From Setoptus koraiensis (Eukaryota > Animalia > Arthropoda), in contig CM106586.1 in assembly GCA_048013815.1 (NCBI GenBank), positions 8,990,001 through 9,054,000 of the forward strand: 64,000 bases of DNA. The letters are read 5' to 3'. Positions within the stretch are counted from its first letter, which is position 1; every line of letters starts with the position of its first letter. Under the pieces are notes generated by a model. The model was not told the DNA's origin. It searched no databases and saw nothing but the letters and a program-made list of their open reading frames with translations. The translations under genes were made by a program, and so were the position numbers. Of this stretch, positions 23,601 to 62,660 are shown in pieces.

Positions 23601-24117
23601 GTCCATCGAAGTTTCTTTCAGCCCCGACGGCTCATCAATGGTTTTCGCAGTTGGCTAAAGCTGCCCAGGCCCGGACAAAACTCACCATGAGCCAGCCATG
23701 AGGCAGCAGAAGAAGCATAAGAGTTGATTGGATCGAGGGATAGACGGCTGTTTCTTCGTTTGCCGCTCTGCTGCAGCTTTCATTGCTGGTGGCATTGTTT
23801 GTTGTCTAAATTGCTGCCGCTGATCTCATTTGGAACCGCCAATTCTATTATTATGCTAGCTATTGTACTCTCTTCCATGAGCTTACATCTAGTCCAGGCC
23901 ACACAGTCGCCTCTGTCGGTGGCAAGTTTGATCATTTTCACCCGCCAATCGGACAGGCGGCAACCGGAAGTTATCGCTTGCACAACTATTGCAGTTCTCA
24001 ATGACCAGTTACGTAAGCGCATTACGATCTGACAACTATCAACTGGCCTGAAATGGTGCCAAAGCGACGCCAATGTCTCGCCGGAGTGACCCGCGCACAC
24101 GGGCTGCCAGATAATAT

Positions 24118-25351
24118 GGCGAGCTCGACATCAGCAGTGTGCAGTCTCGACTTAAAATTGTAAGACGATTGACTGGCCATTGGAGAGAGAAGATTGGCCA
24201 GATGGGGGAGAATCACCCAAACAATTGAACTGTGCTCTTTTTAAGCTGTAAACTTTCACTTTTTCGAAGAGTTTCAGCTGCTAGCAGCAACTGCCTGCTA
24301 ACCGACAATTGTTGTGCCGATGAAGTAACCGGATATGAGAATCGTCAGTATTGGTAGGCCTTTTGAGCGGACAAAATTGTGACAGGCGACAATTTGTTGG
24401 TTTTGGGGACGATTTTTATTCGTTGTAATTCTTATCTGTTGTCTTGTAGGCAAAGATATGGCATGCAACTGTTCGATTGGCGAAAGTGCGATTGCTGAAC
24501 GCAAGTGCTAATGGTATCATCGCCGTCGATAACAATTGGCTGCTGTTTGTGTGCTTGTTGCACCATTACATATTGGCCAGGTATTGTTTTTGCTGGATTT
24601 GATTTTAATTTCTGTATCAAGTTTAATTATTACAATGGGCTTTCGGGAATTGCGTGCATTGTTACCAAACGTTGAATTGAGCGGTGATGCGTTGGTCGGG
24701 TGTCTTTATACAGTGACATTCCAGTACATAGCGGCAGCATAAAAGACCAATCGACTTTTCTTTGCACGCTTCCTCCCTATCTTCAGATTTCATTTTAGCA
24801 ATTTCCAGACACTTCGGTGGGATAGGGCAATCTGATAGGGCATAATGAAAGACACCGACCAAAAGCAGCGCTATTGAGACAACGATCATTAATAACCTCA
24901 TTATTAACTTATGACCGGTTTATTACCAACATCAAGGCCTACGAATTGCGGTTTTTGTGTAGAATCTGGCGGACTTTAGTTGAGAGAGCACACTTTCGCA
25001 AGCATGCTTATGTCAGACATTCAATTTATATTTGATGGTTACAATTATTTTTTGGGCGCATGGCTCTACCATTCCAGACGATTTTTCGTTCATTAGCACT
25101 CTTAAAAGTTGCAGTCAACTTGTACCTGTTACACAAACATTAGAAATATATCACCTTTCCGTTTTTTCAACATCGCTGTCTTTCCATGCTTTCATTGAAT
25201 GACTATCAAGTTTCTCAAGTACAAGCTTTGAGCCTGTTCTATTCGACCAATCCAGACTTCAGGATTTTAGACAGCCAAATTGAACGTTTTTCGACGTTGG
25301 ATCACGTTCGGCCTGTTAGATATGAAACGGACATCGATGCATCCCTAATTG
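24118..25351. repeat. Copy 1 of a ~1.2-kb dispersed direct duplication (partner 32341-33588)
   Basis: Read by eye: near-identical core 24285-25312 vs 32511-33549, with more diverged but alignable flanks. Confidence 0.95.
24662..24901 (-). CDS. Putative secreted cysteine-rich small protein, copy 1 (79 aa unspliced; possible second exon 24592-24517 giving 103 aa)
   Basis: Signal-peptide-like N-terminus MRLLMIVVSIALLLVGVFHYALS|DC, then 7 Cys. Duplicated with one amino-acid difference. TATAAA lies ~125 bp upstream (25030-25025). Family not recognised. Confidence 0.6.
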   Translation of the reverse strand: MRLLMIVVSIALLLVGVFHYALSDCPIPPKCLEIAKMKSEDREEACKEKSIGLLCCRYVLECHCIKTPDQRITAQFNVW

Positions 25352-28300
25352 TAGTAACTGTGTAGTATGTTTCAACCGATTCCTACCGAAAAAAAAACCC
25401 AGGTTTTCGAATGATTTTTACCTTTTTAGGGCCAAAATAACTACCGATTCTGATGGGCTTAGTAATCACATCTCGTGATACACAAGATTTGGTTGGTAGA
25501 AGAGCAGACCTATGTTAAAATCAAATCCAAATTCATATTCATTAAACAGAATACATGATGGCATGCAATGCTCGAAATGAAGATATGTCGAGATTTTGTA
25601 CTGTCGAGATTTCATGCGTCAAGCGAACGTCCTTGTCTCTTTTCAAATAGGTTGGGCGTAAATACGGAGCTTGAGAGTTTTGTCATCACCAGAAATACCT
25701 TTGAAGAATCCGAAGCGGATTTTGCTGTCCGTTATAATTAATTTGTGCGCCACTTGGGCACATTTAATTTCGGGCCTCGTTCATTGATTTGACTCTTGGC
25801 TCTCTTGCCACTGTTTTCACGAGAGACCTAAATGCGACCGTAACTTGGCTTAGCTCATTTAAGCGTCACTCTATGGGTAGCGGAGATTGCAAAGTATCAA
25901 TCGGTATTGGTTCGTGCTGACTAGACAAAAAGAGGCAGTGCCTTTGGACGCGAGCACTTTGGTGAGGCACGTTGAATTATTGTTTTGCTACACCGTCATC
26001 GAGCTCTTTGTCCAAGTCAACTTTGAGCTTTGCGTAATATATTGCCCAATACTTAGTTTAAGTAAAAGAAAAAATACGCTACAATAAAGTTGTTGGCCCC
26101 AGGATTGTTGCCGATGGCTACGATGCGGCTAATAGCGCAAAATGACATGGACGATGCCATCTCAATCTGAACACGTCAAGCGGGTATCGTTACGCTGGCC
26201 AAATCACTGCTACCAATCTAAGACATTTCGTTTCGTCGTCCCCGGCCCGCAGAGCGTTCGCGAGTGCCCCTTTGCGACTGGCATCACGACGATGACAAGA
26301 CGATTCAACCAGAGAACCTGCGTCTTATTGTCATTGATTGTGCAGCGATGCAATCTGCATTTATCTCTTCATTTACATTGTATACTGGTGGTGATATATG
26401 TGCTTATATTTGCGTTTATCTTATTTACAGCGCTGTCTATCGCTTCACCAAAGGCCGCTCAGGTAGCGATTAGATTGGCACCGACGCAAATTCAACAACC
26501 ATCAACCAACAGACAGTGTCTGTTCGACTTGAGCCAGAAACTGACAACTTGCGAGCTAGTTACGCAAATTATCGCTCAATTTAGTTACATCATCTGCAAA
26601 TATCAAGCCGGACAATTGCATAACTTATTGCTCGTGTGAGGCGCCCCACTCAAAAAGTCACTCGAGCTGACCGTTTGACTGGTGTGACGCTTGAGGCTCT
26701 GACGGATTAATTGCACACAAGCAGCAGCTCGATGGACGCATGAAGCGACACATGAAAAAGCTGAATTGGCCACTCGGTTTTGTTTGGTCACTCTCTGTCT
26801 CACTTAACACTGTTATCGCGCACATCAGACAGGTTAGCAGCCATCTACCGGTAGTGGCGAGTAACAATAACAAATGGCTAAATTGCAGGCCGGTCGAGCC
26901 GAACAGCTTGTTAGTGTGTGTGTCAGTTGTGATAGGTTGTGTCAGAGAACAGTAGTTATCGTATCGCCGTCGCATAGTGTCCGTTATATGTTACCTGTCT
27001 GATGCAAGTGATCAATCTCACAACGTAGCCCATATATAACCTGACCCACGGCTGACGTGACGCTACATGACGTAACGTGACGTGTCTGTTACGGATGTGC
27101 ATGCGATCATTAATCACATCAGTAGTTGTGTGCCGGCGCGGTTTCCGTTGTTGGTCGCTTGGTTATTTTAGCTAACTAGCCAACTTGTATCGCATGCATG
27201 CCATGCGTGCCCCACACAAACACCAAAACGCCAACGTGCTGCTGGGGCCCGTATAACACACAGGCTGTATCTGGTAACAGGTGATACTGGGGCCCCATTG
27301 TATCGACTGGCGATAGATGTGGCTGATTGGCTGGCAAATAAGCTCGCACAATATTGTCTAATTCACACGGGCAGCGCACACAGTTTGTTGCGATGGCCGG
27401 ATGCTTATTTATATCGGTATATATTACGACATACTGACATACTGACATGGAATGTGTTGTGATACGGCCCTCGATCGGAGTCTATGCAAATTACATAATG
27501 TAACGGCACACACTTTTTCCTGTCAGCTAATGTGTGTGTGTTGCGCAAACAGATTGCTTAATAGCTGCCAGCAGTTGCAAATTATCGTTTTATTCATTGA
27601 GGTTTTGTCCACTTGATTGGCGTTTGCATGTCGGCTGTCTGCAATCAATGCCAATCAATGCTGCCAATATTGCGCAATACACTGGCCTGTGTAATATGCC
27701 AGTAGTAGTATATAATAATTTGGGCCATATAACAGCATATAACAACATGCCAATGGCTAAACCTAAACAATCCACAATTCACGTGCACCACCAAACATTC
27801 ACATATTATCATAATATATTAGATTACAATGCAAACCGGAAGCCAGCCGATAGAGCCCAAATGACAGTTGGTCGAACACAGTCTAGAAAATGGCAATTTG
27901 TGCACGTTGCAACACAACCAGTGGCCACTTTGTGCCACAGCAGTTACAATAACCGCTCAATGTGTATCCATTGCAACGCAACCAATCGCCATTAACCGTT
28001 ATGGCCGCTATATATCCGCTAATGCAATTCCAATTAACTCATAATAATAATGAGCTTGCCTGAGAGTATTAATTCATGTCACTGACGCCAACAACACACG
28101 CCAGTTATTAAGTCGCCAGTTTGTTCAAGTGTGCACAATTTAGTGCCCCATCGCCCGCTCTCTGGCAAATCGCTCTAGTCTGGCGATTTGCCTGGCCCCT
28201 TTTTTCTGTCGCCGCCTGGCCCATCGATGCTCGCCAATCAGCGCTTGCCGATATTAATCGGGGCCTCAAAACTGCCAAAGTGGCCACTATGGCCATCGGA

Positions 28301-31300: not shown

Positions 31301-32340
31301 GACGATGACGCCTGCACGGCGATGCCTTTCTCAGGTTTTACTATTTTCCCTCGCGCACAACTCACAAAGCGACCCTATATCTTGCGCCAAATTTGCCCTG
31401 ATTTCTTCTTCTTGTCGAGGCCCCCTTCTCTGTGTCGTGCCTCTAATAGTAGACTGGCAGTGTTCGTGATGTTTGTTGGCTCGACAATACGGCCATTTTG
31501 TCGCTGCTCGACTATGATCCCTTTGGACATTGGAGCCGTAAAAGAGTGACTGGCCCCATCCGGTCTGACATTTAGACACACGCCGGGCAGCGAAACAGTG
31601 ACAACAACCACCGATAGTTTGCCCATCTGTATGTCACATTGATGCACACACACACACACACACATGTACACATTCAGAGGTTACACATTTTTCCAGTTTG
31701 CAGCATGGCTAACTAAAAATTCTATCTAAAGAATGCATCTTTATTTGGGCAAATCATGTCGTGTGTATGAGCGTAGAAAATGCAGTGTTAGTGCTCAAAA
31801 TATTCATACATATAACATGACATGGAACTGCGTCACGTTTGGCACGTCAGAGATGAAACGGGCTCTAATGGGGCGAAACTCAAATGGATTCCACCAATCA
31901 ATCAATTGATGGCACAAAGATTTGACAAGATTGTTTCGCTGAATTTGATGAGCTCGGTACTGAAAACAAGTCAATGATGTCGCTGAAACTGCTGACTATG
32001 GAGAAAAATAAAGACGCAGACCCGCACACACTCGCAACGAGGCAAACTTGACGAAAACTTGTGCCGTCACTACTTTTTGGCCTGCCAGTTTGGTAGGCAG
32101 CAACCGGAAGTTAGCGCGTGCCCTTGGATTTCTATGTTCTATTACTCAGCATCGATAGCCTAAGGAAATTAGAGGTTAAAAAAATGGTGTCACTATAGAG
32201 AAAATTTCAAAAAGGCGTATTCTTTCAGGCCTCAATTTGGAAAATCCAGAAAAGCAATAGTTGAGTCGATCTGAGTGTCATACTAAAGAGATTCACCTTG
32301 TAAGCTGAAAACATGAATGATACGCCAGATAACTTTTGAT

Positions 32341-33588
32341 GGCGAGCTCGGTATCAACAGTGTGCAGTCATGACTTGCAATTTACGACGATTGACTCGCC
32401 ATTGGAGGGCGCAGATGGGCCCGATGGGGGACAAGCCCGCGAACAATTGAAACATGCTTGCTTTTTTAGCTATAAACTTTCGCTTTTTCGAACAGATTTT
32501 CAGCTGCTGACAGCAACTGCCTGCTAACCGACAATTGTTGTGCCGATGAAGTAACCGGATATTGAGAATCGTCAGTAGGTAGGCCTTTTGAGCGGACAAA
32601 ATTGTGACAGGCGACAATTTGTGGGTTTTGGGGACGATTTTTATTCGTTGTAATTATCATCTGTTGTCTTGTAGGCAAAGATATGGCATGCAACTGTTCG
32701 ATTGGCGAAAGTGCGATTGCTGAACGCAAGTGCTAATGGTATCATCGCCGTCGATAACAATTGGCTGCTGTTTGTGTGCTTGTTGCACCATTACATATTG
32801 GCCAGGTATTGTTTCTGCTGGATTTGATTTCAATTTCTGTATGACGGATCAAGTTTAATTATTAAAATGGGCTTTCGGGAATTGCGTGCATTGTTACCAA
32901 ACGTTGAATTGAGCGGTGATGCGTTGGTCGGGTGTCTTTATACAGTGACATTCCAGTACATAGTGGCAGCATAAAAGACCAATCGACTTTTCTTTGCACG
33001 CTTCCTCCCTATCTTCAGATTTCATTTTAGCAATTTCCAGACACTTCGGTGGGATAGGGCAATCTGATAGGGCATAATGAAAGACACCGACCAAAAGCAG
33101 CGCTATTGAGACAACGATCATTAATAACCTCATTATTAACTTATGACCGGTTTATTACCAACATCAAGGCCTACGAATTGCGGTTTTTGTGTAGAATCTG
33201 GCGGACTTTAGTTTAGAGAGCACACTTTCGCAAGCATGCTTATGTCAGACATTCAATTTATATTTGATGGTTACAATTATTTTTTGGGCGCATGGCATTA
33301 CCATTTAAGACGATTTTTCGTTCATTAGCACTCTTAAAAGTTGCAGTCAACTTGTACCTGTTACACAAACATTAGAAATATATCACCTTTCCGTTTTTTC
33401 AACATCGCTGTCTTTCCATGCTTTCATTGAATGACTATCAAGTTTCGAGTCTCAAGTACAAGCTCCGAGCCTGTTCTGTTCGACCAATCCAGACTTCAAG
33501 ATTTTAGACAGCCAAATTGAACGTTTTTTGACGTTGGATCACGTTCGGCACGTTTGATATGAAACGGGCATGAACGCATCCCTAATTG
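32341..33588. repeat. Copy 2 of the ~1.2-kb dispersed direct duplication (partner 24118-25351)
   Basis: Same orientation, offset ~8.23 kb. Confidence 0.95.
32894..33133 (-). CDS. Putative secreted cysteine-rich small protein, copy 2 (possible second exon 32817-32742)
   Basis: As copy 1; differs in the ORF only by CGC>CAC (R57H). Confidence 0.6.
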   Translation of the reverse strand: MRLLMIVVSIALLLVGVFHYALSDCPIPPKCLEIAKMKSEDREEACKEKSIGLLCCHYVLECHCIKTPDQRITAQFNVW

Positions 33589-34544
33589 TGCGACATCCAA
33601 ATGAATTCGCCTGCCAATCGAGCGCACGATGACTGGACAAATTCGTTTCCCTGTATTCGATAAGGTCAGTCTCCGAAACTGAGTCTCGAATGCGAATCTT
33701 TGTTGCCTTCGGAGCATTTCGACAAGAACAAGAAATATTGGCGTGGATTCATACACACGCAATGAGACAAACTGGATTGAAACTTCGCCGGATCAAAATC
33801 TTACGGGTCGCTGTCTTGGCATGGAGAGGATATAAATAGGCACGAGCACGTATAAGGATAACGGTTATACGAACTATGGGCCGATGGAGCCCATGAAATG
33901 AACGGCGTTTTCAAATTCTCACTGGCAGCGATAACATTTGATTGATGCGAATGAGATTGCCCGTGCCACCATACACAATTGCGGCTCGATAAAGTTTTCC
34001 AGAAATTCGAGTTTGCAAACAGGCCTTATCTACTGGCAGTAATGGTGGCGCCTCTTATTTCGCTGCTCGCCATTGAGCAATTTCCAGTTGTCCAGTCGTT
34101 TGTCGGACTGTCGGATTGTTGCGCTACACTTGAATTGGTGGCCGCAACATGACAGTCTTGAGAAGGGGGGAAAGCAGCGGAAGTGTAATGCAGTTGACAC
34201 GCGATTGACTTTCGGCCGGAAGCTAGCTTTCGCTCTCTGCCGAGTGCCCGATAAAGCGTTGGCGGAATAAAAGAGAGTCGTCACCTTGTGTCCGCGTGTG
34301 ACTGCGGTGGCCCGATATTCGCCCGCTGATCGCCTCGGTCAATGGCGCCCGGCAAGCGGGATGGCACGCCGCAGTGAGCCGATGACCGATTGGCTGGCGG
34401 TTGCGGTCGACAGTGTTGCTTGTGGCGCCTGTCACTGTCACAATAACGATAATAATGATTATTATTTGTTACGTTGTGTGTGTGAAACTCGAGACTGTTG
34501 TCGCGACCGCGTTCGCGCCATTACCGCCCGGAGAGAGGACAATT

Positions 34545-54655: not shown

Positions 54656-55927
54656 TTAGGCATTTGACTGCACGTGCCCGACGCCCGGAAATTCGGAAAA
54701 TGAATAATGAAGTGGATAGTCAATAATATTATGGAGTGTGTTGGTTCTAACTTGTGTGATATAATTTTTGTATCTTTGGCGGATAAAAGCTTTATCTTTG
54801 TCTGTTTCAATCTCCTTCTTTTTGGCCACAACTTCAGGTAGATTTTTATAAATTTTAGAGGTCTGTCTTTTCATTTGACTGTAGGAAATTCTGGCCGCGG
54901 AGGCGTTAATTTGGCGAACTTGGTTGCGGTTTATGTTTGTGTTTGATTTAGAGTAATTATAATACGAGTTTGGATTTTCACTAGGATGGGATTTGTCTTT
55001 TCGATATGTATTTCGGTGGAATTCCGACGAGCGATGACACTTACAGTGACATTCCTCGTTGTTTTGTTCTTCATTTTGTTCTTCATACTGTTCTGTATTT
55101 CGTTCTATATGTTGTGCATCGAGTAGTTTTTGATATTGCTTATTTTTCTCGAATTCCTTTCTCCTTTCTACTTCCATCAATTTACGCCGTTCAGATCTTT
55201 GTTTTATGGCTTCCACACGTTGACTGGACCTTTCAATAATACCCGGACAGTTCATTGTGAATATTTCGTGCAAAGGTTGTGGTAATGGTTTAAGATGCTC
55301 ATATCTTCTGTAGATTTCTTCCTCAGAGTACGATGGCCTTTCAGTAGTTGTCGTTATTTGTTTAGTTACAGGTTTGTACATAGGTCTGTGTGTCTGTCTG
55401 TACATAGATTTGGGTGTAGGTTTGGATGTTGGTTTGTGTGCATGATTCGATATATGAGTGGATGTAGGATTTAGAGTAGGATTTTGTGTAGGATTTTGTG
55501 TAGGATCTGATGTAGGACTTGATGTAGGTTTGGGGGTAGGTTTGTGTATAGGCTTGTGCATGGGCTTCTGTATGGGCTGCTGTATGGGTCTGAGTATGGG
55601 TTTCTGTATGGGCTTGTGTATAGGTTTGTGTATAGGTTCAATAAGTACATAGTTCGTTTTCTCATAATTACTCGATTTGCTCACTCTGCTCAGCAGACTA
55701 TCTTCGCTAGTTTGGCTACCTTTGCTACTACTTAACAAACTATTGCGACTGGTTCTACCCTGTGTCTTACTTTCTTTACTTTGGATAAGTGAATCGAGAA
55801 GGGAATGCAAATTGGGTATCCTAACATCCAGCAGATGGTGCGATCTGGCATAATATCCTTGTTGTTTGAGCCTAAGTTTTTCCAGGTCGTTGCGCAATTG
55901 TCGCAACTCGCGCAAATTGTTGGACAT
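54656..55927 (-). CDS. ALMS-motif protein (ALMS1/CEP295/C10orf90-like C-terminal motif), 423 aa
   Basis: PLHEIFTMNCPGIIERSSQRVEAIKQR and ISYSQMKRQTSKIYKNLPEVVAKKKE resemble the two halves of the ALMS motif (LQEAL...PDFISRSQER; EM..RSKRIYD.LPEV) as recalled. Confidence 0.7.
   Translation of the reverse strand: MSNNLRELRQLRNDLEKLRLKQQGYYARSHHLLDVRIPNLHSLLDSLIQSKESKTQGRTSRNSLLSSSKGSQTSEDSLLSRVSKSSNYEKTNYVLIEPIHKPIHKPIQKPILRPIQQPIQKPMHKPIHKPTPKPTSSPTSDPTQNPTQNPTLNPTSTHISNHAHKPTSKPTPKSMYRQTHRPMYKPVTKQITTTTERPSYSEEEIYRRYEHLKPLPQPLHEIFTMNCPGIIERSSQRVEAIKQRSERRKLMEVERRKEFEKNKQYQKLLDAQHIERNTEQYEEQNEEQNNEECHCKCHRSSEFHRNTYRKDKSHPSENPNSYYNYSKSNTNINRNQVRQINASAARISYSQMKRQTSKIYKNLPEVVAKKKEIETDKDKAFIRQRYKNYITQVRTNTLHNIIDYPLHYSFSEFPGVGHVQSNA
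55463..55638. repeat. Coding 12-bp minisatellite (xKPI / xPTQ tetrapeptides) inside the ALMS-motif gene
   Basis: TGTAGGATTTTG and TGTATGGGCTTC-type units with 12-bp period. Confidence 0.85.
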
Positions 55928-56100
55928 GACGCAATATTATTAAATTAAAGTTAAAATTTCAGGGAATGGGGGGCATGTGATAAGTTGATAATAATAAATA
56001 ATAAAATACGATTTTTAGCGCCATAGATGACATGATTACTATTTTTGTAAGCAGCTGAGAATAGACTGTGTTTGATGTACGCACAGCCCATCCACTGGAC

Positions 56101-56396
56101 TAGTGCTGCGGGCAGGATTCCCGCTCAACCGGGTATGCCCAAATCATCTATCTGCCCAAAATAGACGTTAGGGTATGCCTAGCGTCTTGGAAGATTCTTG
56201 ATTCAGCGGGTATGCCATTCACCCTAATCTTCCGATAGCGTAATTTCGATACTTCTGGCCTTGCCATTGTTCACTGATTGTAGATTCAGAATATAAAAAT
56301 CTATTTTAGGTGAACATTTGGCCGCCTGCATGCCCAACGGCTCAGAACGAAATCTGGGTAGGGGCGGACTCTACCCATGGCTCTGCCAGCACCACT
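56101..56396. mobile_element. Possible degenerate hAT-MITE relic related to the 60403-62094 element
   Basis: TAGTGCTGCGGGCAGG at 56101 matches that element's right TIR at 15/16 nt. Internal GGGTATGCC x3 and GCCCAA motifs; weak right end CTGCCAGCAC; no clean TSD. Confidence 0.4.
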
Positions 56397-56936
56397 AATA
56401 CCTACACACTAATGCACTGGTGCAGACTGTGTGGAAGCGCACGTCATGCGATGAGCGCTTCAGTTGTGTGCGCTTGTGCGCGCTTTGTGCGATTTGTACC
56501 AGTGCATACCTGGCCTTGTGCGCCTTATGCGTTCACAGCCACACTAGTTTCACTACAACGACTTTTTCCGTATTGAAAAGCGCACACACTACTACCGTTT
56601 AGTATGCTGTGCGCGACGAAATTGTAGGGGGCGCTTCAACGGCGGTGAAAAAGCGTAGAATAAATAGTGGAGGTGCCATGTTTTGCTGCCACCACCCAAT
56701 ACATTGTACTCTTCCCAGCTGCTGCGAAAATTCTCTCTCAATTAATTCAATATACATGTATATATAATATGCAATCCATACACTTGACTGTGGCGCTAAA
56801 AATTGTCTCCAATTTACTCATTTATTTATTTGATTACTAATTTATTTACAACAAGTAAATGTCAGCCTGAAATATTAAAAATTTATTCTACTCATTTGAC
56901 CTATAACACATAGCCGCAGCGGCCCACAATACCAAA

Positions 56937-58802
56937 ATGGAAGTGGAAGACGGTGGAGGAGACCACATGATGCAGGCCAGCCCCAAAGTTACCCTCATTG
57001 ACAAGGGTTCACAATGGAGACACTTCAAACGTGGACCAAGAGTAGACAAATGTAATCATTATATGGCCACTTGCAATTATTGTGGACAGGTTTACAGGAG
57101 AGGCAAAGTAGAAATGTTGCGCCGACATCTCGCAAATAATTGCGTCAAGGTCCCAATGCCTGTGCGACAAGAGTTTAAGGCACAGTTATTGGAGGTTTTA
57201 AACAATCCGGGCAAGCAAGTTAAACGAGAAATAGTCATGGTCGAATCCGATGTGGCTACCATGGGCAACAGCACCCCCCTGAATGTTAGAGGTGGCAAAA
57301 CAAAAGTGGTCAAAAGAGAACCAAAAGACCTTTGGAACAATAATAAACAATCAACCACGATAGCCTTGCAAAATGCCGGCCCAGTTAGATATGCGGCACC
57401 ATTCCAGTTGAATAGTAATGATTTTAGGGATCACATAGTGCGTTACTGTTTTTCTGAGTTGGTAGATCTAGAATCAGTTTGCTCGCCATCATTCAGAAAT
57501 ATTGCTCATTTGTTACTTAAAGCCGCACACATATCTACCAACCCTAAACAGTTAGCTTCATTACAGTATGATCTCTCAAATCTCGATCAAAATCTTCAAC
57601 ATTTATACGAACAAGAGAAGAACGTTGTCATGGATGGTATCAAGTATTGCATTGATCGTAATGTTGGTGGTGCCATAGTGTCTGACTTCCGTGACAACCT
57701 ATGTGTTATGTCAGTGACTTATATAGACAAAGACTGGAAAACAAGAGAGAAAGTATTAAGAGCTGCACAGGTGGATAGTGCCGGCCAATTTATTCTGGAT
57801 ACTCTTATCGAATATGGACTGATGCAGGACACAAACATTTTAAACAAATTTGCCTATGTATCAAATTCTGATGGATTTCCGTCTGGAGTGGAGGTACACC
57901 TAGCGTCCATTGCAAACATAATAGATCATTGTGTCGAGGTTGCTGTATTCGCAGATGGACAATTCGATCAATTAATTGATAATTGTCGCCACATTTGTAA
58001 AGAGCTCAAACTATTACCAATGCCCACATACGCTCCATGGATTTATAATTTTGAACTTATTGAAACTGTTTTAAATAGTACCGACAAATTCGTACCAGCT
58101 AACTTTTCTCTGGATACCATGATAGAAACAATGACGATGATTTATGAATTGTTGAAACCCTTCAAAGAAACCTCCACCTCTTTAAGAGAGAGTGTAACCA
58201 AAAGACCCACCATCAACCAAGTTGTTTTAGAGTGCATAAGATTGAAAAAATTCATTGCAATTAAAGATGAATCAGCAACTAGCAATTTCCCTAAGAAGGC
58301 TGCCGTGAAAGAAGCTCTCCTAAATGAGTTCACAAATAATGTTAACCTACAAACTACTCATAAGATAGGCGTGTTTTTGTGGCCAAACTTTAGACATCTC
58401 AAGATGTTCGACGATGCTGAAAGACAAGAGATCTACAACGAAGTTCGTCGACATATAGACAGCATGCAACACTCCAACTTGTCAGGCTTAAATGCCGATG
58501 GGAGTTCTACAATGAGGTCTCAAGACTCAATATATGCGGAGTGGGAATCGACTGATGAAATTGAACAAGATGAAGTTAGTCGATATATTACAGACCAGTG
58601 TAATAATTGTGGTATTGATAATTTGATTGAGTGGTGGAGAGAGGCTTCCTGTAGGTATCCGAAATTGAGTCAACTGGCAAAATCCATATTATCTATACCG
58701 GCAAGTGTGACATCTATAGATAAGCGGGTCAAACTCAAAGCTGATATCAAAACAAACGAAAGGATGTTGTTCCTTCATTGCAATCTAGGAAGCGTTGGTT
58801 AG
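56937..58802 (+). CDS. BED zinc-finger, hAT-transposase-derived protein (ZBED-like, probably domesticated), 621 aa
   Basis: BED finger (WRHF...ATCNYC...LRRHLANNC) and C-terminal hAT dimerisation domain (LIEWWRE...YPKLSQLAKSILSIPAS). Intact, intronless, no flanking TIR pair seen. Confidence 0.85.
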   Translation: MEVEDGGGDHMMQASPKVTLIDKGSQWRHFKRGPRVDKCNHYMATCNYCGQVYRRGKVEMLRRHLANNCVKVPMPVRQEFKAQLLEVLNNPGKQVKREIVMVESDVATMGNSTPLNVRGGKTKVVKREPKDLWNNNKQSTTIALQNAGPVRYAAPFQLNSNDFRDHIVRYCFSELVDLESVCSPSFRNIAHLLLKAAHISTNPKQLASLQYDLSNLDQNLQHLYEQEKNVVMDGIKYCIDRNVGGAIVSDFRDNLCVMSVTYIDKDWKTREKVLRAAQVDSAGQFILDTLIEYGLMQDTNILNKFAYVSNSDGFPSGVEVHLASIANIIDHCVEVAVFADGQFDQLIDNCRHICKELKLLPMPTYAPWIYNFELIETVLNSTDKFVPANFSLDTMIETMTMIYELLKPFKETSTSLRESVTKRPTINQVVLECIRLKKFIAIKDESATSNFPKKAAVKEALLNEFTNNVNLQTTHKIGVFLWPNFRHLKMFDDAERQEIYNEVRRHIDSMQHSNLSGLNADGSSTMRSQDSIYAEWESTDEIEQDEVSRYITDQCNNCGIDNLIEWWREASCRYPKLSQLAKSILSIPASVTSIDKRVKLKADIKTNERMLFLHCNLGSVG

Positions 58803-58978: not shown

Positions 58979-59697
58979 TCATAAGTTTTCGAATAGAGCG
59001 TCTGCATAACTGATCATTCCTTGATAGTCCTCGCAATGTTTATACAAAGATTCAGGGATTTTCTCTATGCCTAAATAGGCTCCGCTAAGGGAGCAAGCCA
59101 TTGAAGCAATTGTGTCGGTGTCACCTCCACAAGAAATGGCCCAATGCAAAGTGCGAACAAATTCATTTGATAACTCATAAGCATCTCTTGTCTTAGACGC
59201 ACCTCGAAGGAAGGAATATACAGCCAACGGAACGGAGTTTTGTGCCGACACATCGTTTCCCAAAACTCTCACTATGTCTCTGCAAGTAATGTCTTTTCCA
59301 GAAACGTGCATTTTCTCAATTATCTGTTTAATTTGTTTGAGTTTCTTTGTGTATATTTGATCGGGTTCTTTAACTTCTATATGGTGCATGCACTCTATTA
59401 GATAGTCCAGAAAGGCGTCTTCATTCATTATATGACCCTTTAGTTTAAGAGCTTTTCTAATGGCGAATACCATTAATAACGCTCCATTGATACCATATCT
59501 ATGCGAATGAGTTATTCTAGAGCATTTTTCTACCAAGTCCTTGGCTTGCTCATCGGAAAGATTCATTCTATCGGAGTATAATGCCAAGCCGGCACTTCTC
59601 ATTGCAGCACCATTGCCATAGCTGCCACTTCCGTTGAATTGCTTCTTTGCTGGTCCAAATGGATCCGCGTAGTTTGTTTCCTTGAGCGCTGCGAAAA
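58979..59697 (-). CDS. ADPRHL2: ADP-ribosylhydrolase ARH3, exon 2
   Basis: QFNGSGSYGNGAAMR, NSVPLAVYSF, and GGDTDTIASMACSLSGA. Acceptor CATTAG at 59698. Confidence 0.92.
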
Positions 59698-59821
59698 CTA
59701 ATGAATTTATTTCAAAGAGTGTTTATACAAAGATTGATTAGAAAGGCTTAATAACGAAATTTGATCATAGCGTGTTGACGATCATGCATAATATCTAATT
59801 GATGATAGTCTAATTACTCAC

Positions 59822-60167
59822 TAACGTGAACACTGGCTCCGTAGCCTCTATGGGGATCATGAAAGAAAGACTCAGCGTACTCTCTAGCCATGTCATTGGC
59901 ATTGAAGCCCTTATTGGCCAGAATAGACTTGCATGTTGACCTAGTCATGGCGGTATCGTCTGTATAACGCAAGGTTTTCTCGGATAGAGATTTCTGGCCA
60001 GAATTCGAAGAAGGCGTTTGGGGCTTACTTTCGGCATGAGGCTCCGTTAGACCCTTGATATGCTCAACTAAAATGTGCGGATTGACTCTGCTGCTACCCT
60101 CAAATCTGGCCCCGACTGCATCCCCCACAAGTACGCCGATGAGTGTCCCACGGTAAGCGGATTTCAT
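59822..60167 (-). CDS. ADPRHL2: ADP-ribosylhydrolase ARH3, exon 1
   Basis: RGTLIGVLVGDAVGARFE, YTDDTAMT and PHRGYG. Donor A|GTGAGT at 59821; the 124-bp phase-1 intron restores the frame (HVIFAALK); 354 aa total. Confidence 0.92.
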
Positions 60168-60367
60168 GATTATTATAATCTTGAGGTATTGATTTTGTCG
60201 GATCTGATGTGTTGATAGATTATTTGCGTCTGCTAATACACGATAGATGATGCTGATGTCTTTGATGGAATATCATGCGAGCCATGGGTGCAGTCGCAAT
60301 ATGTCAGAAGTTGCTTACATAATAATCTTGACTAGCTGATAGCTCGCGCCAGACAACCCAACAATCG

Positions 60368-61954
60368 CTAAATGAACAGTACAGCTGATAATGCATGTGA
60401 TGTAGTGCTGGGGGCAACTATGGGCGGTGGGGCATGCCCGTGTGCGGCACAGGGGCAGTGGGCAGCCGCCCAACGGGCAGGGATTTTGCGGGCAGCTTTT
60501 GGGCGAGATGGGCAGCAGGCGGGCAGCGGGCAGCATAGGATTATGGTCATATCAAATATGAATACGAGATACCAGCGAATCGGCCAGAGGCTCGTTATTA
60601 TGCCCAAAGGAAATTTGATATATCCGATGTTCAGTCTTTTGCTCAACAAGTGTATGATCTTTTTCATAAGTCCGATGATGCTGAGATCAAACGGGCTAGC
60701 GAGCTTGGATATATAAGAATGATGTCTCCCATGACTTGTGGATGGGATTATAAAGATATAAAAAAGGAGTATAAGAACTTTCCTCGGTATAAGGAACACT
60801 TGGACTATGTCAAATTTACTCCCGTTGTATTGCCGGTTGTCATGCCTACCCATATCATATATGTGGCTTTTGTAAATAGAGCAATCGATACCGATGTCAC
60901 CCATGGTTTTGTTCTTGTGGACGACAATTTCAAATATGAGAATTACTATACTTTTGTGGATATTACCGCGATAATGATGCAGATAAGCCGGATTTTTTCC
61001 TTCGCAGTCTCTCTTGACCCGATGATGTTTATGTGCACCCGGATGGTCCATAATAACGGAACAAACAGAATTCCAACTGCTAGAGAACATCGTGACTGTA
61101 TTATACAGTGGCTCACTTTGTTGCCTCACCCTCCGTTCGAAGTATATTCTGAGCATTCTTACAGAACAGACTTTATGAAGATTTTGGTTGAAGACTGCAA
61201 TGCCCATCCTTACTATACCGCTAGGGATAGGGTTAGCGCAATGGCCATTAGTCAGCCAACCAGTAAGGTCCCTACTCTCCTCTATTTGGGCACAAGAAGA
61301 CATGCCGTTATGACTGCTCGAGCTGAGGTTGCTCGCCTCAATGGTCTTCAAACTAAGGTCTATAACCGTGTGTTTACGCCATTTGCGATAATTCCTCATA
61401 TAATGCACCGGACAGTAGATAGGGCGCAGGAATTTAGATCTATGATGCCTGATGACATATCTAACAGCTTGGAAAACTGTACTGACGTCGATCATGCTTT
61501 GCAGCTCTTGAGCCACTCCGCTGATATTATTTATTCTCATGTGGAAAATAGGCCTGTGCCATATCGTCAAGTAAGCAGACCAGTAATGCCTCTGACAACC
61601 ACCGAGGTGGCCCAGACGGTCGTTGATTTTCCAGTGCATCAATCCGATGAGAAATTGGCCGAGCTTAAAAAGAGAGCTGACGAATTGTATCTTCTTGGTA
61701 AGAATCAGCAGGCTGCTGAAGTCGAGAAGGAGTTTATCCGACTTTATCGAGATTGTTATAATCAGGATGCAACATCCATTGGTGCAAGATATGGTCAAGC
61801 AGTGTTGCCAGGGTCCATTGATGATAGACATAGGCAAACGACTGGTGCCATTGTTAATGCTTCCGCCATTATACCTGCTTTGGATTCGGAAGTGGTCGAT
61901 TTGGCTGACTCTGAGAATGATAGTTCTCCAGCCTTGGAGGAATCTGCCATGGAC
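60368..61954 (-). other. In-register antisense open frame covering the whole cargo (528 codons)
   Basis: The ORF track gives 60368-61837. I extended it to 61954 because no TTA/CTA/TCA codon occurs in the + frame until 61955. Codon boundaries coincide with the + ORF. Confidence 0.8.
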
Positions 61955-62094
61955 TTACCCAACCAACCAACCCAACCAATCCATCTCGCCCAAAAGCTGC
62001 CCGCAAAATCCCTGCCCGTTGGGCGGCTGCCCACTGCCCCTGTGCCGCACACGGGCAGTCGCTGCCCATGCAGCTGCCCCTGCCCCCAGCACTA
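60403..62094. mobile_element. Non-autonomous hAT-superfamily DNA transposon (1692 bp) carrying captured coding sequence
   Basis: Identical terminal 14 bp TAGTGCTGGGGGCA, then a perfect 77-bp inverted repeat (60435-60511 vs 61981-62057). Perfect 8-bp TSD ATGTGATG at 60395-60402 and 62095-62102. An 8-bp TSD is diagnostic of hAT (or P). Confidence 0.95.
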
Positions 62095-62095
62095 A
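60539..62095 (+). CDS. Transposon cargo ORF of unknown family (frame open 60539-62095; first ATG 60719); probably a captured gene fragment
   Basis: 518 open codons with globular-protein-like composition. No transposase or RdRp motif recognised. Runs into the right TIR; the stop TAA straddles the TIR/TSD junction. Confidence 0.65.
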   Translation, partial: DYGHIKYEYEIPANRPEARYYAQRKFDISDVQSFAQQVYDLFHKSDDAEIKRASELGYIRMMSPMTCGWDYKDIKKEYKNFPRYKEHLDYVKFTPVVLPVVMPTHIIYVAFVNRAIDTDVTHGFVLVDDNFKYENYYTFVDITAIMMQISRIFSFAVSLDPMMFMCTRMVHNNGTNRIPTAREHRDCIIQWLTLLPHPPFEVYSEHSYRTDFMKILVEDCNAHPYYTARDRVSAMAISQPTSKVPTLLYLGTRRHAVMTARAEVARLNGLQTKVYNRVFTPFAIIPHIMHRTVDRAQEFRSMMPDDISNSLENCTDVDHALQLLSHSADIIYSHVENRPVPYRQVSRPVMPLTTTEVAQTVVDFPVHQSDEKLAELKKRADELYLLGKNQQAAEVEKEFIRLYRDCYNQDATSIGARYGQAVLPGSIDDRHRQTTGAIVNASAIIPALDSEVVDLADSENDSSPALEESAMDLPNQPTQPIHLAQKLPAKSLPVGRLPTAPVPHTGSRCPCSCPCPQH

Positions 62096-62660
62096 TGTGA
62101 TGTACTGTGTGCGTTTTGCGGGTTCCCTACGTTTCATCGACAGATTTACTTCACCGACACTATCGTTCACCGAGAGTATGCTTCACCGACACCATTCAAT
62201 TCACTTACAGCTTGTCTCACCTACAACTCACTCTCTCTAACACCCATCAACTACTAGTCTCCTCGACAAATCTCTTGTCAGTGATGTTAAGTGATAGCCG
62301 AGGATGCACAGTTTCTCAGCTATCACACTCACAATTAATATCCTTGTAATCATGCGTTAAATTAGTCTAGTCTGCGACGAAAGGGGTTACATAGTGGTAT
62401 AGCTGAGATCTCTTGTATTCGCAGCTACCACACTTACATGAATTTATCGATTGCGAGCGTTAACAGGTTGTCATAAACTCCTTTGAATCCTTCAACGATA
62501 CTTGTCCACAAAAAAAAAAAAATAAGCGCTCGAAATACTGATTTGATCAGTATTACTTGATTTCAACAAATTGACCAACTCTTTCTAGGCGGGACGCAAA
62601 TAATCAACTCACAAAATTAAGCGCTCTTGACACTGATAAGATCAGTATCACTTGTTTTAA

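Follow-up and report, generated by a model that had tools for sequence, protein, structure and literature searches.

A 472-codon in-register double open frame inside a non-autonomous hAT-type element of Setoptus koraiensis

A non-autonomous hAT-type element and its insert

The window (the whole stretch of DNA that was analysed, 64,000 nucleotides of Setoptus koraiensis contig CM106586.1) carries long single-exon genes, which fits the intron-poor type of eriophyoid genome described in the available part of PMC7738191. A + strand gene for a protein with a BED finger and a hAT-dimerisation domain (56937-58802) has 36 homologues, one of them at 94% and the Aceria tosichella 'Zinc finger protein 618' at 45%, and these matches mark it as a conserved host gene, likely a domesticated hAT transposase, and place the host among eriophyoid-like mites. 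The neighbouring ADP-ribosylglycohydrolase gene on the - strand (58979-60272) consists of two ORFs with a probable short intron, and has its probable start near 60168. An element of 1692 bp, spanning 60403-62094, lies ~230 bp upstream of this start and could affect the promoter. To the right of the element, the region 62300-62660 contains very high-copy repeats (summed contig depth up to ~85,000 compared to ~100 in the flanks), among them a 46-nt direct repeat at 62518 and 62613; these are probably other MITE families. Elsewhere in the window there is a 1.25-kb direct duplication with 94% identity (24116-25352 and 32339-33589), as well as a 426-codon ORF on the - strand (54656-55936) with Pro/Thr/Lys repeats and a weak C-terminal match to the ALMS motif (E 0.0014, below the cut-off).

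The ends of the element and the features within it are listed in Table 1. TAG ends are typical of hAT elements, and in the window 60403-62094 is the sole pair of ends with a full terminal repeat and an intact duplication. Because of the 8-bp duplication, the short terminal inverted repeats and the subterminal motif arrays, the element is assigned to the non-autonomous hAT type, of which an 8-bp duplication, subterminal motifs and filler DNA are the marks according to the available text of PMC3260210. The 5-base motif of the arms (nine and seven copies) occurs three times in the insert. Since the target-site duplication and the 77-bp inverted repeat are both perfect, the element looks young. 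No match to a transposase was found in the + or the - frame by Pfam. The BED/hAT gene was considered as the partner transposase and rejected, as it is a conserved gene with its 36 homologues and is not enclosed by any pair of terminal repeats with a duplication. A degenerate second element is present at 56101-56397, with 13 of 14 positions matching the terminal repeat at 56101, its own ends agreeing at 12 of 14 and no intact target-site duplication. Six metagenome loci returned by a pattern scan with the terminal repeat were without further similarity and were judged to be chance matches.

Table 1. Positions of the element, its insert and the two open frames in the window
Feature	Position	Strand	Remark
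Left target-site duplication, 8 bp	60395..60402		Identical (8/8) to 62095-62102
Left terminal inverted repeat, 14 bp	60403..60416	+	Starts with TAG; perfect complement of 62081-62094
Left arm	60403..60538	+	GC-rich; 9 GGGCA motifs; many other contigs align there
Left subterminal inverted repeat, 77 bp	60435..60511	+	100% complementary to 61981-62057
Insert (cargo), ~1.42 kb	60539..61957		43% GC; right edge uncertain, 61957 to 61980
Right arm	61958..62094	-	7 TGCCC motifs; terminates in the 14-bp terminal repeat 62081-62094
Right subterminal inverted repeat, 77 bp	61981..62057	-	100% complementary to 60435-60511
Right target-site duplication, 8 bp	62095..62102		Identical (8/8) to 60395-60402
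Forward open frame, 518 codons stop to stop	60539..62095	+	Opens at the edge of the insert, with no ATG there; extends through the right arm
Reverse open frame, 528 codons stop to stop	60368..61954	-	In register with the + frame over 60539-61954; continues through the left arm

When contigs from four sequencing runs were compared with the window, many of them piled up on the arms, a 98-bp short form joining both ends without the insert was found in 3 of the 4 runs, and one family contig of run X4 diverged from the window at 60538, one base ahead of the start of the + frame. The arms therefore belong to a dispersed family, to which the insert is an addition. An empty-site joint was absent from the 5 joints listed for the 4 runs. 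The element was present in 6 of the 12 listed runs under 4 study codes, a count in which X4 and X5 are possibly one data set and one run is possibly the source of the window; no run that carries it is recorded as RNA. In X1 and X2 the insert was recovered as a single 1501-nt contig with zero differences, at a depth of 102.6 compared to 125.1 and 107.9 in the flanks (X1) and of 81.8 compared to 100.9 and 100.2 (X2). Insert depth in X1, X2 and X4 was 0.8-1.0 times the flank depth. Contigs connect the insert to both arms, while no single contig among the four runs spans flank, arm and insert. The X4 copy differs by two substitutions (61231 and 61425), neither of which creates a stop in either frame. 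No second contig with at least 80% identity to the insert interior was found in X1 or X2, and hence no host parent copy was seen, with the proviso that contigs cannot prove absence. These data indicate that the insert is chromosomal DNA, apparently in one copy, in at least two samples, where depth is not to be equated with copy number.

The double open frame and its products

The two open frames overlap over 60539-61954, that is, for 472 codons in the same codon register, and the double-open stretch begins at the left edge of the insert and ends within ~25 nt of the right arm. A sequence-only reading of this DNA had claimed that the + frame lacks TTA, CTA and TCA codons over this interval in spite of some 30 Leu and 29 Ser, at a chance of about 1e-8 under uniform synonymous use. 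Our recount gave 0, 30 and 29, and the probability recomputed under the same model was 2.6e-8, falling to 2.5e-9 with the codon use of six neighbouring ORFs and to 7.6e-10 with the third-position bias of the insert itself. The codon shuffle that this reading had called for was also carried out: a reverse frame of at least 450 codons appeared in 0 of 100,000 synonymous re-draws (longest 339 codons; mean of 16 reverse stops), and third-position shuffles (n=20,000) gave a reverse frame of at most 371 codons. Host genes, which had been described as free of such avoidance, indeed contain 10-40 reverse stops in register per gene in the six examined, where the longest reverse frame of each gene measures 51-75 codons, and in the rest of the window all in-register ORF overlaps are of 196 codons or fewer.

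GC bias as the cause of the reverse frame was ruled out, since GC over 60539-61954 is 43% and GC3 of the double-open stretch is 41.3%. The frequency of A at four-fold sites is 22% in the insert compared to 30% in host genes, and of the A-ending codons only the three stop complements are avoided, while others are in use. The remaining reverse frames of the insert have normal stop counts. A second + frame (61596-62237) is open for 119 codons within the insert and continues through the right arm, which is likely due to chance (P 0.016, uncorrected for four frames). A random substitution in the insert has a 5.8% chance of creating a stop, and ~50 neutral substitutions (3.5%) would break one of the two frames with 95% probability. 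Overall, the double-open feature is real and statistically strong; its anatomy is clear and its origin unproven.

With respect to the products, the first ATG lies at 60719 (codon 61) on the + strand and at 61831 on the - strand, from which products of 458 and 487 codons are possible. The + strand is the gene-like strand: its codon positions 1 and 2 match those of host genes, and the amino-acid divergence from host genes is 0.058 for its product compared to 0.118 for the - product. The + product has a pI of 5.8 (472-codon part) and 6.4% Leu, compared to 10% in host genes. The - product has a pI of 10.0 and a skewed composition (Ile 12.7%, Glu 1.7%), as expected from a frame constrained by the opposite strand. 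The CpG ratio of the insert (0.78) is close to that of host genes (0.76). The + frame is a fragment, since a start is missing before codon 61 and the insert contains no stop that belongs to it.

Neither product matched a Pfam family, an RdRp family included, and NCBIfam gave no match. PHROGs returned two weak rows for the + product (best E 0.077), and PDB sequences gave one row at E 0.73 in one search and none in another. In a set of 5.8 billion proteins, searched at near lengths only and for both strands, 0 of 4984 and 0 of 3329 candidates were relatives. The + product alone was compared with 1.84 billion representatives, yielding two matches, to a TPR-like repeat protein and a repeated kinase fragment; both were repeat-inflated and limited to short stretches, and were rejected as credible relatives. 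Pattern scans, which detect close relatives only, were negative for viral contigs in IMG/VR (0 of 9 and 0 of 4 pattern stretches), metagenomes (0 of 29) and prokaryote genomes in GTDB (0 of 15), phages and plasmids yielded no relatives, and Rfam gave no match. Single-sequence structure models reached a pLDDT of 37.0 and 37.9, and searches with these models, which are too poor to inform, gave no match at E 0.001 or below (best Z 4.4). The nearest neighbours in the ESM Atlas were hypothetical proteins of Nucleocytoviricota and bacteria (0.82-0.90) and Peptidase_C48 clusters (0.80-0.87), and 0.80-0.90 is the level reached by shuffled proteins.

CE-clan cysteine proteases carry His-Trp and Gln-x5-Cys motifs. 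A Peptidase_C48 identity was rejected, as His105 is without a following Trp, there is no Gln before Cys187 and no Pfam match was obtained at E 1 or below; a kinase-like reading by eye was rejected as well. In these searches there is thus no credible relative of either product. The GDD motif, noted earlier as missing from the + product, is absent from both products, and the cellular or transposon family match that would have spoken against the sequence-only reading was not found for the + protein in Pfam, the 5.8-billion set or the 1.84 billion representatives.

Origin of the insert

We give an even chance to the explanation that the insert derives by recent capture from an ambigrammatic RNA replicon, either a virus segment or a satellite, of which it is a copy truncated at its ends, and that it is now a fossil and probably inert; it is from the coding pattern that we infer a viral origin. 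The larger share of this chance goes to a divergent narna-like segment as the donor, by itself a tentative assignment, and the smaller share to another, undescribed kind of RNA replicon, which by itself is rather unlikely. In the donor, the + strand would have encoded a real protein, and selection would have purged TTA, CTA and TCA such that ribosomes could also travel the complementary strand, by analogy with Culex narnavirus 1. A host retroelement may have reverse-transcribed the donor RNA, and the cDNA may then have been used to close a break within a short copy from the transposon family, as in the gap-filling model in the available part of PMC8277862, before or after the insertion of the transposon at its present site; the time since capture would have been too short for stops to appear. 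Since the double-open stretch occupies the insert from one edge to the other, and since ~50 neutral substitutions would have broken it, the constraint was probably set in the donor and the capture was recent. In addition, both frames stay open to the insert edges and the first + ATG comes only at codon 61, so that the constraint seems to predate the capture and the donor to have exceeded the insert in length.

Two likenesses argue for an RNA replicon. The codon avoidance is the one that the available part of PMC7010960 reports for reverse-ORF narnaviruses, in line with what the sequence-only reading had said of this signature, and the insert shares its orphan status with narnavirus second segments (PMC10460169, as far as available). 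The missing host parent copy in X1 and X2, the blank homology searches and the presence of narna-like viruses in mites point the same way. On the other side stand the lack of a homologue to any RNA virus, of a GDD motif and of an RdRp family match in the searches run, together with a GC3 of 41%, the absence of excess folding, the acidic forward product, the length, the host-like codon positions 1-2 and CpG ratio, the DNA-based mode of TIR capture and the weak language-model neighbours (0.82-0.90), namely hypothetical proteins from bacteria and from large DNA viruses. Of the origin proposed earlier, the part that named a non-polymerase segment or an unknown two-way coding element fits, whereas the searches and runs gave no homologue, no RdRp and no RNA run to show a narnavirus origin.

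It is also possible, although we consider it unlikely, that the donor was DNA, namely a DNA virus, a phage of a symbiont or a different mobile element whose antisense frame stays open in register, and that the hAT shell copied it directly through gap filling. TIR elements are known to capture DNA templates, and in the available parts of PMC8277862 and PMC3260210 the template described for capture, by hAT elements as by other TIR elements, is DNA and not RNA. The insert gave no RNA-structure signal, and the ESM Atlas neighbours named above, all at 0.90 or below, would suit such a donor; however, their scores equal those of shuffled proteins, and the 1.84 billion representatives, GTDB, IMG/VR, phages, plasmids and NCBIfam held no credible match, nor did PHROGs beyond its best E of 0.077. 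That the insert functions in place, with the similar arms driving convergent transcription and selection in the mite or the element keeping both frames open, appears improbable to us. Both frames are intact in all runs compared, the X4 differences at 61231 and 61425 are free of stops, products could start at ATG 60719 and ATG 61831, and the codon pattern is host-like. However, with 5.8% of substitutions making a stop, two variants fall far short of the number needed to show selection; moreover, the + frame is 5'-truncated, neither frame ends before it reaches the arms, and selection in situ cannot account for the removal of ~16 expected reverse stops so quickly in an element that looks young.

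A one-way-coding orphan gene fragment, the reverse frame of which is open by chance or by unmodelled codon bias, is very improbable. The case was picked post hoc, and over 250,000 windows with ~30 genes each a P of 1e-9 to 3e-8 gives ~0.01 to 0.2 expected cases; the insert also has fewer A-ending codons at four-fold sites than the host and is low in Leu. Nevertheless, the null with the insert's own third-position bias still gave 7.6e-10, with no long reverse frame in the 100,000 re-draws, the pseudoambigrammatic cause, for which GC3 is above 90% in the available part of PMC13262655, is excluded by the 41% of the insert, and the signal sits on a foreign orphan insert and not on an ordinary host gene. 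We give hardly any weight to an assembly artefact or a contaminant joined between two repeat copies: although no single contig covers flank, arm and insert, the 8-bp duplication matches on both sides, 6 of the 12 listed runs, with 4 study codes, contain the insert, and it is joined to both arms by contigs at nearly the depth of the flanks (X1, X2 and X4).

The reason why in-register two-way coding exists is an open question in the field, and a copy in an animal chromosome, if derived from RNA, would be a dated fossil of a two-way-coding replicon. The insert would then also serve as a ready probe for such a replicon, which homology searches of mite RNA data would overlook, and it suggests a homology-free search for endogenized viral dark matter, in which AT-rich genomes are scanned for in-register double frames. 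In the literature searched, which left out most subscription journals, we found no report of an ambigrammatic insert in an animal chromosome or transposon, and no such insert was reported in the literature on capture of RNA viruses by non-autonomous DNA transposons within the same limits. A doubtful but more specific proposal is that the insert is the fossil of an undescribed class of mite ambigrammatic replicon that is AU-richer, unstructured and unrelated to known narnavirus segments. If so, two-way coding evolved outside the known narnaviruses, and a DNA-transposon shell can carry the cDNA of an RNA replicon into an animal germline.

Comparison with known systems

In the literature surveyed, as far as available, true in-register two-way coding of such length goes with narnavirus-like RNA viruses. 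Narna-like viruses have been found in mites. The ambigrammatic narnaviruses keep their reverse ORF, at moderate GC3, through the specific absence of CUA, UUA and UCA (available parts of 10.1101/761890 and PMC7010960), and the insert is like the RdRp segments of the ambigrammatic alphanarnaviruses, such as Culex narnavirus 1 (CxNV1), in its in-register reverse frame and the absence of the three codons, as well as in having one strand gene-like and the other compositionally skewed (PMC8316113, available text). In CxNV1, translation takes place on both strands and the RdRp segment does not persist unless its reverse frame is uninterrupted, and the accessible portion of that report mentions that no endogenized copy was seen. 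Unlike these segments, the insert has no RdRp or GDD and is chromosomal DNA inside a DNA transposon, and its GC3 of 41% compares with a mean of 61.1% for alphanarnaviruses with a reverse ORF (PMC7010960, as available), a high GC3 being a tendency of this group and no strict criterion. The pseudoambigrammatic viruses share the long in-register reverse frame, which in their case follows from a GC3 above 90%; Table ST5 of the same source (PMC13262655, seen in part) lists 114 ambigrammatic virus sequences and may include non-narnavirus or low-GC cases. Further literature for comparison, likewise available in part, is PMC12994069, 10.64898/2026.02.11.705406, PMC10714968, 10.64898/2026.10.09.758028 and 10.1101/2024.09.25.614983.

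The second segments of ambigrammatic narnaviruses, which have neither a polymerase nor database matches (available part of PMC10460169), offer a further likeness: in CxNV1 Robin and AejapNV1 S2 both strands are open, no polymerase is encoded and the products are orphans. The described segments are 0.8-1 kb in length and both of their ORF products are basic (PMC8316113 and PMC10460169, as available), in contrast to an insert of at least 1416 nt with an acidic forward product. The complementary G/C termini and the 3' stem-loop of ambigrammatic alphanarnaviruses, also of Robin and S2, were not seen in the insert, the natural ends of which were probably lost; its ends fold no better than shuffles in 4 of 4 comparisons (z +0.21 to -0.66), and the natural ends probably lie outside it. 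Pervasive folding is reported to be essential for yeast narnaviruses (available part of PMC10293807). No excess RNA folding was found in the insert, with a mean z of +0.58 (+) and -0.42 (-) compared to -0.28 to +0.18 for three host genes, in a test of at most seven 200-nt windows per sequence without a narnavirus positive control. Taken together, the coding geometry is like that of an ambigrammatic segment, narnavirus membership is not supported, and the measurable features (GC3, pI, length and folding) lean away from the described ambigrammatic narnaviruses.

As a transposon, the element resembles maize Ds2 and Ds-l4 (PMC3260210) and Pack-hAT-N8_XT (PMC8277862), which according to the available parts of these sources share with it the 8-bp duplication, short terminal repeats, subterminal motif arrays, an unrelated internal sequence and apparently one copy. 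It is unlike Pack-TIRs in general, which are defined by a parental host copy, often nearby (PMC8277862, available text), in that none was seen for the insert, and unlike the maize Ds and Pack-TIR elements its filler is a long double open frame. Non-retroviral endogenous viral elements of arthropods usually have LTR retroelements, not TIR shells, as their carriers. The insert is like such elements, for example the two rhabdovirus-like ones of Tetranychus urticae (PMC11512250, as available), in that a mite chromosome has kept long ORFs in what is likely the cDNA of an RNA replicon; those elements were recognised by protein similarity, whereas the insert is recognised by its coding geometry alone.
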